The notes under the pieces: generated by a model
The model's input: the letters and a program-made list of their open reading frames with translations, nothing else
Databases searched by the model: none
Told to the model about the DNA's origin: nothing
Shown here: positions 3,451 through 61,546 of the stretch, piece after piece
Layout: each line of letters begins with the position of its first letter
How positions within the stretch are numbered: the stretch's first letter is position 1
Position numbers and translations under genes: made by a program
Assembly: GCA_963751455.1 (NCBI GenBank)
Contig: CAVVUN010000012.1
Coordinates: 128,001-192,000 of the forward strand
DNA from: Nitrospirota bacterium
Lineage (GTDB): Bacteria > Nitrospirota > UBA9217
Direction of reading: 5' to 3'
Length of the DNA: 64,000 nt

Positions 3451-3570
3451 GGCAAGTTGTTAGTGCAAAATAACATTTTCTGTTAATTGAAAATGCAATC
3501 GACCGCCGTTCCCATTTTGCGAAATACTTGCTATAATTATTCTGCTGCAGGTCAATAAGTTGCGCGCTAG

Positions 3571-3779
3571 TGTAGTGTCTCACAAACGACTGGCTGTTAT
3601 CATAGCGCGGCAGTAGGCCGCAGCCAAACTTGTAGGGCAAGGCTTTAGCCTTGCTGAAAGCGCCGGAACAGCAGCAACCCTAAAGGGTCGCCCTACAAAT
3701 TCATCAGCAAATATTTATGCGAAGATAAATTTTCGATGAGAAATCATCATATAACACCGTCCATTTAAGAGACACTACG
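3571..3779. mobile_element. MITE family A, CTAG-flanked, with internal REP-like pair
   Basis: Ends TGTAGTGTCTCACAAACG and CCATTTAAGAGACACTACG; CTAG at 3567-70 and 3780-83; internal GTAGGGCAAGGCTTTAGCCTTGC...GCAACCCTAAAGGGTCGCCCTAC; related copy at 34841-35028. Confidence 0.75.
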
Positions 3780-3791
3780 CTAGGAGCGGCG

Positions 3792-4382
3792 ATGGATCAC
3801 TTCAGAAAAATGGAACAATATGAAATATTGAAAGCTTCAGCATCGGCATCCCCTCTTTCCATCGCCAAAAGGAACAACGTTGAACAACGCTGGTCAGGGC
3901 AAAAAGCCCATAATTTATGGCAGCATGCAAAGAAGTATTTCTATTACAGGAATGACAACCCAAGAGCCGCTTTCTTATGCAAGCGGCTGATCGATCAGTA
4001 TGCGATGACACAGGAAGCAGACGATGCAAAGCTTCTGCTCCATGACATCAGGATTGAAATTAAAAAACTGACGGAAGACTATGACAATAAGCCGGCTGCC
4101 GAAAATCAGGAAAGCGTCCGAACGCAACAGGCAGCGGCTGTTTCACTGCTGGCGAATAGCCGGACGAAATTTTCCATAGCCACGGCTGTTGTGGTGATTC
4201 CGATCATCGGGATAGCGCAAGGCGGCGTTGTAGGGATAGCAGCAGCTGAGTTGCTTACTTTATTAGCACTGGCCTTTGTTTTCTGGATAGATGCAGTGAT
4301 CAGATTTTTTTTGAAAAAGATAATAATCTCTTGGCGGAGCCTCCTGAAACGTGCTGACTACCGGCTCTGGCCTGTTGACTGA
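3792..4382 (+). CDS. hypothetical membrane protein
   Basis: 196-aa ORF with C-terminal hydrophobic helices; RBS AGGAG overlaps the CTAG target site. Confidence 0.55.
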   Translation: MDHFRKMEQYEILKASASASPLSIAKRNNVEQRWSGQKAHNLWQHAKKYFYYRNDNPRAAFLCKRLIDQYAMTQEADDAKLLLHDIRIEIKKLTEDYDNKPAAENQESVRTQQAAAVSLLANSRTKFSIATAVVVIPIIGIAQGGVVGIAAAELLTLLALAFVFWIDAVIRFFLKKIIISWRSLLKRADYRLWPVD

Positions 4383-7790: not shown

Positions 7791-8911
7791 TCAGTTATTC
7801 TCGGGCGTCGGCGCTTTCCGGAAGTCCGGGGCCAGCGTATTGTCGACCACCGCTGACTCGCCGTTTCGCAGCTTGAAGACGCCGGTGCTGACCACTGTTT
7901 CTCCCTCCTTGAGCCCGCTCGTTACGGCCACGAAATCGCCGCGCTTTTGACCGAGGCGCACGAACTGCTGGCGCAGCACCTTCCCCTTTTTATCCGGAGC
8001 ATCCTCGATGATGAAGACCGAGTCTCCATAGGGGGCGTAAAGGACGGCCGTTGCGGGAATGGCGAGCACTGTCTGGCGTTCGGGGAGCTTCACCGCGACA
8101 TTGACGAACATGCCGGGGCGCAGGTTCTTCGCGCGGTTGGCCAGCTGTCGCCTGCAGCCTGATCTGGCGGGTTTCGGCATCGACAAGAGGGTTTATGGCG
8201 GTTATCCTTCCCTCCAACGTCTTCCCGGGCAAGACATCCTGGTCACCTGTACTGTCAAGCCCAGGCGCACTGACGATAGTTGCTGCTGGGGCAGGGTGAA
8301 GTCTATATAGATCGGGTCGAGGGACTGCAGCGTGACGATCGGATCCCCCTCCTTCAGAATCTGGCCCAGGTTGACCTGGCGTATGCCGAGATAGCCGCTA
8401 AAGGGCGCGCGGATCGTCTTCTTGGCGATAGTTGCTCTTATATCATCGGCTTGAGCCTCCGCCTGTTCGGCACTCACCACGGCATTATCCCGTATCGGCC
8501 AGAGAGATCAAGTTCTTCGCATACAACTGGCTGACTCTCTTCAGATTGATGCGTGCCAATTTCACCTGGGCCTCAATGCCGGGAAGCTGCGCCTTTTCGC
8601 TCGAGGTGTCCTGACGCAGCAGGATTTCCCCCTTCTTTACCGGTTTGCCCGCCTCGAAACGGATCTCGACCACTTTTCCCGCCAACTCGGCGGCTACGGT
8701 AACGCCCTGAACAGCGATCAGCGTCCCAACCGCGGTCAGGGCAGTCTCCCACGAATCTGTCCTTAACGACCGCGGAGGTCACCGTTTGCGGCGGCGGTAC
8801 GAAATTCTTGCCCTGATCGATCATCGCACCGATCTGCAAGGCCTTCACGGCGACGATAACGGCAATCAGAATCACCAGGCCGACAATCGTGAACATCAGA
8901 CGTTTCTTCAT
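7791..8911 (-). pseudogene. RND periplasmic adaptor (MFP), split by about 4 frameshifts
   Basis: TIRAPFSGYLGIRQVNLGQ, LRPGMFVNV, QQFVRLG...GDFVAVTSGL in different frames. Confidence 0.85.
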
Positions 8912-9175
8912 GTCTGTAATGCTCCGCTACCGGATTCAATTCTGTTTTTCAAAGCCCAAAGTCGTACGCTTTCTAACATCGAACATACCGGGGAAAAAAC
9001 ATTTTCGATCTGGGATGAGATGATCAGTAATAATTTAAAAAAGAAAAACATCTTCTTCTTGAGTAATTAGACCATTGCTCCGAAAACATGTCAATAAATC
9101 GAAAGCTGTATCTCTTTGAAAACTATTGAAGCTGCAGAAGTCGATTGGAAAATTCAGAGGTAAGTTTTCCCGAGG

Positions 9176-9901
9176 CTATGCAGAATGTTTTTCATTCACG
9201 TTTGCAACGGCGAGTTCACGAAAACGCATCGCGAGTTCAGGCCCTTTGGCCTCTTCTTCGTGTTTAAAAAACACAAATACCTTCTCCCATTTTTGCGAGA
9301 GGATTCTTTCTCTCCATTCCAAAAGATCCGCATCCGTATAATCGGAACGCCGCAGCCGCAGGTACCCCCACGCTGCCGTACTGATGATTTTATGTGCCGG
9401 ATTCTCATCAGTATCCTCGATACATAAACCGCATCCCTTTTCGTGAAGACGGTCCGCAATTTTATTATCGAACCAGGACTCACTGCGGAACCCGAATGCG
9501 CATGACACGTTGCCCGGAAGGAGATCAAGAAATGCTTTTAGCGCAGGCCCGTCTGCATGAAAGCTCTTGGGAAACTGAAACAGAACAGGACCCAGTTTAC
9601 TGTCCAGGACAGACAGGGACCTGAAGAAGTAACCCGTCTCCGCTTCCACGTTTCGCAAACGCTTGAGGTGCGTTATGACCTGCGGCGCCTTGAGCGCAAA
9701 AATAAAATCACGCGGGACCTGTTCGGCCCAGGAAACGAGGACATTCTCTTTGGGCATGTGATAAAAAGTGTTGTTGATCTCTACCGTGTTGAGGCGTGCG
9801 GAATAGAAACGAAGCATTTCTTTGGGCGAGATCTTTTCGGGGTAGAATTTTCCCTTCCATTCCCTGTATCCGTATCCGCTTGCACCAACATAGATTTTCA
9901 T
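9176..9901 (-). CDS. DUF72 family protein
   Basis: WKGKFYP, VEINNTFY, ITHLKRL, LFQFP, YLRLR. Confidence 0.9.
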   Translation of the reverse strand: MKIYVGASGYGYREWKGKFYPEKISPKEMLRFYSARLNTVEINNTFYHMPKENVLVSWAEQVPRDFIFALKAPQVITHLKRLRNVEAETGYFFRSLSVLDSKLGPVLFQFPKSFHADGPALKAFLDLLPGNVSCAFGFRSESWFDNKIADRLHEKGCGLCIEDTDENPAHKIISTAAWGYLRLRRSDYTDADLLEWRERILSQKWEKVFVFFKHEEEAKGPELAMRFRELAVANVNEKHSA

Positions 9902-9935
9902 AGATCACCTTTGAAAAGCCAGAGGACTCTATAAT

Positions 9936-10040
9936 CTCAGATGACACAGATGATCCACAGATAAAGCTATAAGCATGTAATTGCTTATTCTTTTCTTCTT
10001 CATAATCTTTTAAATCTGCTTAATCTGCGTTACCTGCGGA
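9936..10040. repeat. CACAGAT-unit hairpin repeat
   Basis: CAGATGACACAGATGATCCACAGAT...ATCTGCTTAATCTGCGTTACCTGCG. Confidence 0.6.
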
Positions 10041-10049
10041 CAAAACCTG

Positions 10050-10154
10050 TCATGTCTTTTTTTTAAAAATGATGCGGTCCAAGGATGTCCTTCCCGGCCA
10101 GGCAACCAGCAGAAGGAGCGCGATCAACAGGTACGCGGCTGCAAGTTCATACAT
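10050..10154 (-). pseudogene. C-terminal remnant of a DoxX-like membrane protein
   Basis: MYELAAAYLLIALLLLVAWPGRTSLDRIIF resembles DoxX C-termini (compare GGGKWSLDRLL in the 60452 gene). Confidence 0.5.
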
Positions 10155-10509
10155 AATTCAAGTTTATCACACACAATCGAGCAACGAAAAAGGGACGGAA
10201 GTAACAGAAGCATAAGGTATTTTATTTTGAGAATGCAATATGGCGGATTGAGTTTTAAGGTCTGCGAGCAATACTTCAGACAAAGAGATTTTCAACCATC
10301 GGGAGGAGAAAGCACGGAGCACGTTAACGCCGTCGACAATGGATAAATGCCGACCTCAAACGTCAGTTAGCGGACGGATATGGGCGGCAGAAACCGCAGT
10401 TTCTGCCGCCTTTTCCGCTGTTTCGAGTTTTTCCAAAAGAAGAATTTTGTATGACAGGGAGAAGCCAAATATGAATATTGATCATGATGTTTTCAAGCTG
10501 CCGCGCTTT

Positions 10510-10842
10510 TTAATATTGTCTACGGCCTCTGCCGCCGTAGCCGCTGCCGCCCCGATGGTCTCTGTCACCCCCGAAGCCTGAGCCGCCGCGCGGCTTCTGC
10601 GGTTTTGCTTCGTTAACCGTAAGGTTTCGCTCCATGAAGGCGACGCCATTCATGGCCGAAATCGCCTTATCTCCGTCCTCATCAGATCCCATTTCCACAA
10701 AAGCGAAGCCCTTGGACCTGCCGTTTGTCGGGTCGACAATGAGCTTTGTAGATACTACCTCTCCGATCTTTGCAAATGCCTCCGTCAAATCCTGTTCCGT
10801 TGTCTGGTACGACAAATTCCCTACATAAAGTTTCTTGGCCAT
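10510..10842 (-). CDS. RRM RNA-binding protein with Gly-rich tail
   Basis: RNP2 LYVGNL and RNP1 KGFAFVEM. Confidence 0.95.
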   Translation of the reverse strand: MAKKLYVGNLSYQTTEQDLTEAFAKIGEVVSTKLIVDPTNGRSKGFAFVEMGSDEDGDKAISAMNGVAFMERNLTVNEAKPQKPRGGSGFGGDRDHRGGSGYGGRGRRQY

Positions 10843-24282: not shown

Positions 24283-24368
24283 AATGATAAAGGCAAACTA
24301 TCTGAAAGGATAGGGCGCAAAGCAACCGGCCCTGAGCTTACCCGAAGGGCGGCGGGGCTGCCGAAGTA
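24283..24368 (+). ncRNA. c-di-GMP-I (GEMM) riboswitch
   Basis: GGCAAAC-TATCT-GAAA-GGATAG-GGCGCAAAGC-AACCGGCCCTGA...GGCGGCGGGGCTGCCGA matches GEMM-I architecture; upstream TTGCAT-17 bp-TAAAAA. Confidence 0.9.
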
Positions 24369-60196: not shown

Positions 60197-60418
60197 ATGA
60201 ACAGCAGCAAACCTGTAGAAATGGAACTGGAAGCCGGCACCTATTACTGGTGCTCTTGCGGACAAAGCGGCAAGGGACCTTTCTGTAACGGATCTCATAA
60301 GGGGTCCGGCAAAACACCGGTTCAATTCAGCGTTGAGGAAAAGAAAAAAGTATAGCTCTGCAATTGCGGACGCACCAGGACAGCGCCGTATTGTGACGGA
60401 ACACATGATAAAAAGTAA
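60197..60418 (+). CDS. two-motif CDGSH Fe-S protein with an internal in-frame TAG
   Basis: WCSCGQS..GPFCNGSH...KKV*LCNCGRT..APYCDGTH. Confidence 0.85.
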
Positions 60419-60451: not shown

Positions 60452-60895
60452 ATGTTGAATAGAATATTTAAGACGGAAAATGACACTGCGGCCCTGGTTC
60501 TCAGGGTCCTGCTCGGGATCGTGTTTCTCCCTCACGGGATACAAAAGGTCCTGGGATTATTCGGAGGAAATGGCTTCAGCGGCACCATGGAATTCTTTAC
60601 CGGGACCCTTGGCATCCCGGCCGTGTTCGCCTTCCTGGCCATCGCGGCCGAGTTTCTCGGTGCACTCGGTCTCATTGCCGGGTTTTTCACCCGCGTAGCA
60701 GCTTTGGGCATCGGCATCATGATTACTGTGGCTGCCCTCATGCTTCACGTCCAGAACGGGTTTTTCATGAACTGGTTCGGCAATCAGAAGGGAGAAGGGT
60801 TCGAATACCACATCCTTGCCGCCGGGATGGCACTGGCCCTCGTGCTCAGGGGCGGCGGAAAATGGTCGCTCGATCGGCTCCTCGCGAAGCAGTAA
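60452..60895 (+). CDS. DoxX family membrane protein
   Basis: PHGIQK, GFFMNWFG..KGEGFEYH, WSLD. Confidence 0.92.
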   Translation: MLNRIFKTENDTAALVLRVLLGIVFLPHGIQKVLGLFGGNGFSGTMEFFTGTLGIPAVFAFLAIAAEFLGALGLIAGFFTRVAALGIGIMITVAALMLHVQNGFFMNWFGNQKGEGFEYHILAAGMALALVLRGGGKWSLDRLLAKQ

Positions 60896-60905
60896 GTGGA
60901 CAGAG

Positions 60906-60939
60906 AAAAGCGGGCCGTTCATCTGAACGGCCCGCTTTT
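60906..60939. terminator. bidirectional intrinsic terminator
   Basis: AAAAGCGGGCCGTTCA-TC-TGAACGGCCCGCTTTT. Confidence 0.8.
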
Positions 60940-61025
60940 GTTCGGTCTCCCCGGGCCTGAACAGGATACGTTAGTGCCAGGAAAAGATCGTCGTTTCTCA
61001 TTTTACTGACTTTTTTTCTCTTATA

Positions 61026-61055
61026 TTCGCAAAAAAAAGCGGAGAGTGGTATATT
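61026..61055 (+). promoter_or_regulatory. putative promoter of the structured RNA
   Basis: TTCGCA-18 bp-TATATT with TG extension; predicted +1 near 61062. Confidence 0.55.
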
Positions 61056-61061
61056 AATTTC

Positions 61062-61363
61062 AAGGCGCTGCCAGACCAACACTGGAAAGTGTAAACGTGT
61101 TTTATCCTCCGTTGAGGGCGTGAAGCGACTGACTTGGCGTGATCGATTAATCGGAAAGCAGTGGCGCCAAAAGCGCTATTAACTGCCGGTTCAAAGATTA
61201 CGGAAAGTTGGAAGTCAAAAGCCCCGCGACCGAAGGATGTACGGTGAAGCCAGCGGGAACGGTTCTGAATTTGCGAAAGCAAAGACGGGAGTGTGAACGC
61301 GAGGAGCACTGAATATTCCAAGGTTCAACAGCAGGAATAAGATGCGGGTCAAAGCAACGCCTT
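61062..61363 (+). ncRNA. unassigned ~300-nt highly structured RNA
   Basis: 5'/3' closing helix, long nested helices with G-U pairs, GGAA and GAAA tetraloops, no credible ORF, promoter before and terminator after. Confidence 0.75.
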
Positions 61364-61381
61364 CTGACTCATTCCCCATTC

Positions 61382-61413
61382 AACCGCCGAGGTCCAACCT
61401 TGGCGGTTTTTTT
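61382..61413 (+). terminator. intrinsic terminator
   Basis: AACCGCCGAGG-TCCAA-CCTTGGCGGTT followed by a T run. Confidence 0.85.
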
Positions 61414-61546
61414 ATTCACAAATAATTGCACGCGTAATTGCTGACTGGTGTATTGAAAGGTGAGATAATTTCAGTAGAGCGATCCATCATCCGTGAGCGC
61501 GCGCTGCACGTCGTCGAAACATGCTGTGCCGGGATCGAAGAAGCAA

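Follow-up and report, generated by a model that had tools for sequence, protein, structure and literature searches.

A large, structured non-coding RNA with two gene designs in a bacterial family of the Nitrospirota

Combining promoter, terminator and folding predictions with a comparison of homologous loci, our work here describes an RNA gene within the 64,000-nt stretch of DNA that was analysed (the window), in the intergenic stretch between a DoxX gene (60452-60895) and a PAS-GGDEF-EAL gene, both identified by domain searches of the neighbouring ORFs. The RNA body comprises 302 nt of the + strand (61062..61363), and its ends form a closing helix that joins 61062-71 to 61354-63. Ahead of it lies a sigma-70-type promoter (61026..61055, +) with a weak -35 element, TTCGCA, and an extended -10 element, TG-G-TATATT, which the promoter scan places as TGGTATATT at 61047-55, with a predicted start at ~61061-63. 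The scan alone does not rise above chance (2 sites found versus 0.9 +/- 1.1 expected); the element is kept in homologues, and TTGACA-17-TGGTATAxT is present ahead of many of them. On the 3' side, an intrinsic terminator (61382..61415, +) consists of a 12-pair hairpin (61382-61408) and a T run; its pairs have probabilities of 0.74-1.0, and when the hairpin is forbidden, the fold loses 17.7 kcal/mol and no pairs with the RNA body form in its place. Upstream, a block at 60969..61025 (+), ~95 to 40 bases before the RNA, is conserved in what we call accessory copies of the gene (see below): ~55 bases long and common to many of them, it can be aligned across 4 and across 10 copies, and its profile finds two sites in this genome, at the window copy and at a second accessory copy (E 2e-7 and 5e-8; next best E 4.1). 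It is likely an operator or UP element. A terminator-like hairpin 3' of the DoxX gene (60908..60941, +), read from the sequence and absent from the terminator-scan output, likely insulates the RNA gene from that upstream neighbour. Close by, a two-motif CDGSH iron-sulfur frame (60197-60418, +) carries an in-frame TAG after residue 52 while both of its halves match PF09360, and could be a pseudogene, a case of readthrough or an assembly error. Far upstream, the window also holds a c-di-GMP-I-GGC riboswitch aptamer (24283-24366, +; 63.9 bits, above the Rfam threshold).

The original prediction had seen here a large, structured RNA encoded by a gene that stands alone between a promoter and a terminator of its own, and this is supported. 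Its alternative, a large attenuating riboswitch for the PAS-GGDEF-EAL gene, is not supported, even though that gene lies on the same strand just 3' of the terminator. The neighbours of accessory copies are varied, and by mechanical ORF calls the nearest downstream ORF lies on the same strand in 14 of the 30 accessory copies and on the opposite strand in 14, with none in 2; beside one close copy, a GGDEF gene of related type runs in the other direction. A second promoter-like site, found by the promoter scan 3' of the terminator and outside the RNA gene (61441..61469, +), likely drives the PAS-GGDEF-EAL gene. Because the neighbours vary, the orientations split evenly, the terminator lacks a rival antiterminator fold and this second promoter-like site intervenes, we give the riboswitch hardly any credence.

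On the + strand, the stretch 61055-61370 folds at -118.2 kcal/mol (z -5.10), a value that none of 100 shuffles reaches, compared with a z of -0.96 and 15 of 100 equally good shuffles for the - strand; a fold no better than shuffled sequence, which had been named beforehand as evidence against an RNA, is thus not what the + strand gives. The claim that folding favours the + strand holds for the window copy and weakens across the family: in a test of 61 of the 86 copies compared, with 12 shuffles each, 60 of the 61 fold at z < -2, but antisense strands often fold well too and the sense strand is the lower in only 38. We therefore assign the RNA strand from the positions of promoter, boxA and terminator. 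The predicted fold of 61062-61363 is Y-shaped, with the closing helix, a rod and two long arms. The 5' strand of the rod (61074..61116, +) comprises GACC, an optional hairpin (61079-92) and helices at 61096-61116; its partner is 61324-61350, and 79-93% of its cells are paired in the 26 other accessory copies. The left arm (61116..61224, +) rises from a GGGC/GCCC base through A-rich internal loops and stacked helices to a tip at 61160-80, whereas the right arm (61229..61324, +) has an ACC/GGT, a base helix (61235-47/61306-18) with changes on both sides in 10 of 12 pairs, GA-rich loops and a GAAA-capped tip at 61270-83.

All helices listed in the original prediction can pair in the window copy, the closing helix in 9 of 10 positions with one C-A. 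Most are also kept in the 26 other accessory copies, at 76-96% of cells in both alignments: the closing helix, GACC/GGTC, the ACACT hairpin and both rod helices, and likewise CGTGATC/GATTACG, AATCGG/CCGGTT and TTTGC/GCAAA. Others do not travel well. CCCGC/GCGGG is paired in 38-42% of cells, AGTGT/GCACT in 38-61% and TGACTT/AAGTCA in just 28-45%, the last giving way to a minimum-energy register, CTGACTT/AAGTTGG, that reaches 71-76%. The supposed pseudoknot GGATGT/ATATTC turns out to be nested, forming a helix where the right arm begins (79% paired); ACCG/CGGT, itself 78-79% paired, competes with it and is a possible alternative fold.

In the comparison with covariance models that the original prediction had proposed as a check, no Rfam 15 family matches 61026-61413 at threshold, which places the RNA outside Rfam. 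Below threshold the window copy draws six matches, none covering the body and all at the level of terminator noise; 20 homologous loci give 11 sub-threshold matches, none recurring, and 8 further loci give none. The RNA matches neither the RNase P RNA (RF00010) nor the tmRNA (RF00023) model, nor those of SRP RNA (RF00169, RF01854); the genes for all three lie elsewhere in the genome, that for SRP RNA as a single match. The one 6S RNA match (RF00013) in the genome also lies at another locus. ARAGORN finds no tRNA-like ends in 6 loci, and likenesses to T-box, Y RNA and tRNA arms were short-word resemblances that did not hold. A Y RNA proper would call for Ro60, whose TROVE domain occurs in 1 of 64 genomes of the bacterial family and not in this one; a CsrB/Rsm-type RNA fits no better, with a median of one unpaired GGA per copy and CsrA not found in this genome. 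In outline the RNA does recall the large SRP RNA, which we take to be Y-shaped and ~270-300 nt long, with a closing helix, a small hairpin, a rod and two arms, but no SRP model matches it and the SRP RNA of this genome is encoded elsewhere. A full-text literature search found no paper on this RNA, and in two motif surveys "Nitrospir-" is absent from the main text; supplements of such surveys and subscription papers may bear on novelty. Set against the Rfam models and this literature, we regard the family as a new RNA class within a known broad kind.

This genome has five full copies and one 3' remnant, and sequence-profile matches occur, at 1-5 per genome, in 63 of 64 genomes of one bacterial family of the Nitrospirota, the exception being only 68% complete; all 32 good-quality genomes and all 19 genera are included, with a weakest best match of E 1e-14. 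The profile was built from 30 copies drawn from about a third of the family genomes, which match by construction. For comparison we used 86 distinct copies, their ends located by GGCGYTGC (85 of 86) and GCARCGCC (80 of 86) with one mismatch allowed, 7 of them having come from an exact pattern. Beyond the family, the sequence model gives only partial matches in other genomes of the phylum (E 0.0025-0.009 in 5 of 123) and E 0.11 in one of 5 sister genomes. A left-arm model matches 36 of 36 family genomes and, weakly, 8 of 115 others, its best outside match lying within a reading frame. A promoter-plus-boxA pattern is present in 38 of 56 genomes of the family; outside it, 20 of 244 genomes match, and the 20 stretches retrieved are rRNA leaders or unrelated sequence. 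An exact pattern, which overlooks diverged relatives, gives 34 matches over 185,579 species, all titled Nitrospirota or a taxon within it. Metagenomes yielded 119 pattern matches from 25 of 64 parts, 32 of them family members and 87 unrelated; in viral contigs none of 54 pattern matches scores with the family profile and further searches gave 0, 0 and 1 chance match; plasmids and phages contain no family match. Among the genomes searched, and with sequence models that may miss distant relatives of altered sequence, the RNA thus appears confined to one bacterial family, with nothing convincing elsewhere in the phylum, in phages or on plasmids. Two metagenome contigs (L230 and L241) carry a different conserved, apparently intergenic element of ~310 nt with the same closing-helix ends, which neither scores with the RNA family profiles nor matches Rfam.

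The 86 copies fall into two clades, 56 core and 30 accessory, the window copy being accessory, and share a consensus that is alike in both: a closing helix of 10-11 pairs is followed by a short helix, an optional hairpin and then a rod, with two arms, rich in A/G internal loops, at a three-way junction. This consensus comes from our own structure-guided alignment, which leans towards structure, and from related copies, whose relatedness inflates counts of pairing and of double changes. In a sequence-only alignment of 30 copies, 81% of cells still pair, versus 76.3 +/- 0.3% when shuffled and 35-41% when slid, and 64 of 101 pairs change on both sides, with G-U pairs common. Pairing is kept by these double changes. 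The tree-aware test on sequence-only alignments is stricter: 3 of 87 pairs pass among core copies, with none outside the structure, and 0 of 103 among accessory copies, where one outside pair reaches E 0.07. The interior of the RNA is only ~62% conserved, and the closing helix is nearly invariant.

Could such a fold belong to a folded-back mRNA for a small protein, in the style of type I toxins, or to a DNA structure? The closing helix with its U's also occurs in a pair of small-ORF loci (L301 and L338) that the same pattern picked up although they are unrelated, folded-back transcripts with a short hydrophobic ORF, the same end helix and an unrelated inside, which presumably resemble type I toxin-antitoxin loci; and, as noted, many copies fold well on the opposite strand too. 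Yet indels in the RNA family have lengths that are a multiple of three in just 42 of 511 and 20 of 260 cases, and start-like triplets recur only at conserved RNA positions and lead to unlike peptides that differ in frame and length. Since the indels break the reading frame, the RNA is non-coding, with no conserved protein, and G-U pairs are common in the alignment; we consider both readings together most improbable.

What divides the clades is how the gene is built. The boxA label splits the copy tree in one step, with branch support of 100/98. All 56 core copies, by definition of the group, carry an rRNA-type boxA-like word 11-37 bases before the RNA, compared with 3% of random windows, and no boxA was found in the 30 accessory copies, including that of the window. 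The -10 lies 35-70 bases upstream of the RNA in 54 of 56 core copies; among the 30 accessory copies the motif was found in 25, and in 20 of these no more than 8 bases separate its end from the helix. The 3' ends differ as sharply, in that a U run directly follows the closing helix in 53 of 56 core versus 3 of 30 accessory copies, whereas a strict scan finds a separate terminator in 20 of 30 accessory versus 6 of 56 core copies. Context differs as well: at 44 of 48 core loci the RNA gene and one and the same trpE/pabB-like gene are oriented divergently. In this genome that gene is the first in a series with AAA ATPase, tmk, holB, PSP1, metG and tatD genes. The comparison of gene contexts proposed at the outset thus finds accessory copies in varied surroundings, pointing to action in trans, and core copies mostly at one housekeeping locus.

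Two rRNA leaders of this genome carry the same boxA, about as far behind the -10 as in the RNA gene; where the -10 is TG-extended, an exact boxA comes after it only once in the genome, at the core RNA gene. The core design resembles a pre-rRNA leader, with a promoter, a short leader, boxA and then the 5' strand of a long-range helix around a folded RNA (PMC10250234, PMC8632103), but differs from it in that the helix encloses ~280 nt rather than 16S rRNA, is followed by a U run and has no sequence likeness to rRNA. The leader-trailer helix of rRNA is essential and the effect of boxA smaller (PMC10250234), and when Nus proteins sit on boxA they anchor the 5' portion of the transcript at the exit channel (PMC8632103). 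A ribosome-linked RNA for assembly, storage or hibernation, co-regulated with rRNA through boxA, would account for the boxA word in core copies and perhaps for the accessory copy upstream of darP in L008. But the RNA profiles do not match the rRNA operons of the genome, accessory copies lack boxA, and boxA regulates non-rRNA genes too (PMC5725501), and we judge a ribosomal role quite unlikely.

Across genera, accessory copies are 74-90% identical and core copies of the same genomes 63-78%, with accessory identity the higher in 30 of 30 pairs, which exclude this genome and are not independent; within genera this is so in only 2 of 6 pairs, and in 4 of 9 pairs with this genome. That accessory copies are more alike than core copies across genera suggests that they may have spread horizontally, slower change being the alternative. 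The same similarity, the varied places of accessory copies and the existence of 5'-truncated remnants (G000:C12:234248-234356 and L026 1501-1594), in which nothing is left of an accessory copy but its 3' end and its terminator, would also suit a selfish mobile element, MITE-like or copied through RNA, with terminal inverted repeats. The core copy, however, stays at one fixed locus, sequence upstream of the predicted start is carried along, and genomes hold at most five matches. We hold such an element to be very unlikely because the accessory copies show no target-site duplication (longest repeat 4.9 versus 4.9 by chance in the 14 of 30 with both borders located) and no constant transposase or reverse transcriptase neighbour.

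Because the riboswitch, MITE or retro-element, Ro60 and CsrA readings fail, a trans-acting RNA bounded by its closing helix remains. The nearly invariant paired end, the extra copies and the upstream block of their own would fit a protein-binding RNA that acts by dose; up to five matches per genome, in tandem in some, count in the same direction, and a paired helix of hardly varying sequence fits protein recognition, although an end that varies so little might instead be the target of a nuclease. We thus tentatively favour, at a little under even chances, a stand-alone ncRNA gene, present in the window as an accessory copy, whose Y-shaped product acts in trans by binding and titrating a protein machine in the manner of 6S and Ms1 RNAs. 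6S and Ms1 are rods with a central bubble that bind RNA polymerase, Ms1 being ~300 nt and limited to one lineage (PMC9130861). The likeness lies in the stand-alone gene, the 5' and 3' ends paired in a long irregular rod and, for Ms1, the size and lineage-confined range (PMC9130861); the difference lies in a consensus with a three-way junction and two long arms in place of a central bubble (PMC9130861), in the separate 6S gene of the genome and in the lack of any model match. The junction, the existing 6S gene and the few pairs that pass the tree-aware test all count against the 6S/Ms1-style reading.

For this protein-binding RNA we propose the following course. Transcripts of core copies would begin with a leader of 35-70 nt, and its boxA would bring in the Nus complex, as happens on rRNA. 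The complex would keep the 5' strand close to the polymerase while 300 nt are made and the 3' strand comes out; the closing helix could then form next to the U run and end transcription, and the leader would be trimmed. Accessory copies, mostly starting at the helix, would yield the mature RNA at once and raise its dose, controlled by an upstream operator of their own, and the closing helix and A-rich internal loops would be the likely protein contacts. RNA polymerase is the first candidate partner, though a rather improbable one. The literature searched contains no description of termination through a 300-nt loop, and among the candidate partners no protein travels with the RNA family, Ro60 and CsrA being as described above.

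A different possibility is an RNA-only machine like raiA, ROOL or GOLLD, in which the two arms would come together as a compact tertiary structure with catalytic activity, a small-molecule ligand or the capacity to form oligomers. With raiA, smtA, OLE, ROOL and GOLLD RNAs the present family shares large size, intergenic position, high pairing, varied context and the absence of an expression platform (PMC10861870, PMC11109978, PMC12286853), and with the smtA or 'Soda Lake' motif a lineage-limited range (PMC11109978); the raiA motif RNA, by contrast, is abundant and single-copy, again without an expression platform (PMC10861870), against 1-5 matches per genome here, and the boxA leader and the U run right after the closing helix have no counterpart in the parts of those descriptions consulted. 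Such a machine would explain the conserved unpaired A/G-rich loops on both arms. The left-arm tip loop, conserved in core copies (AGUUGAG) and free in accessory ones, is moreover complementary in core copies to a junction strand on the 3' side, in 433 of 492 cells, with the full set of six pairs possible in 43 of 82 copies; accessory copies pair that strand locally and lose the loop. Covariation is absent from this loop pairing, however, since 557 of 2000 row shuffles do at least as well, and it shares bases with a local helix, so that we treat a core left-loop pseudoknot as a lead only; the modest conservation of the interior and two copies without most of the left arm weigh further against an RNA-only machine, which we consider unlikely but not negligible.

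On the boldest reading, one bacterial lineage might have a fifth housekeeping RNA in addition to RNase P, SRP, tmRNA and 6S, made like a miniature rRNA operon, self-terminating only when its 300-nt fold closes, and with leaderless, horizontally spread copies in which a local helix has replaced the long-range loop contact; it could then be a new ribozyme or an RNA controller of polymerase or ribosome, a picture that we find doubtful but worth keeping in view. Few large, highly paired bacterial RNA classes are known and several still have no function. To these our analysis would add a class that almost every genome of its lineage carries and that offers over 110 variants and two gene designs from nature, in a single bacterial family known here from assembled genomes. 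Comparing boxA-led with leaderless genes would allow two tests: whether a non-ribosomal RNA is chaperoned by the antitermination complex of rRNA, and whether transcription can be terminated by a long-range helix.

The copies also vary in arrangement and form. Tandem genes, in which a second copy follows the core copy by 100-200 bases, occur in L009 (3590-4297), L041 (1513-2705), L141, L283, L299 and L337, with three copies in a row in L041, and L381 has two core-type copies (598-910 and 3525-3829) 2.9 kb apart that flank ABC transporter genes. Short variants of 251-253 nt, missing most of the left arm, are found in L008 (4126-4378) and L043 (1519-1769); a variant in L009 (4028-4297) lacks the small hairpin, and one paralogue in this genome lacks the optional rod hairpin. 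Several accessory copies (L033, L160, L043 and L015) have as a neighbour, possibly by chance, DUF72 or a gene of DNA-repair type (DinB-type polymerase, uracil-DNA glycosylase, UvrA). Two genes away from the core RNA gene in L354 lies a 632-aa Rad50/SbcC-like AAA ATPase (8842-10737, -); 25 of 26 genomes of the family have it, and 8 of 94 other genomes give weak matches.
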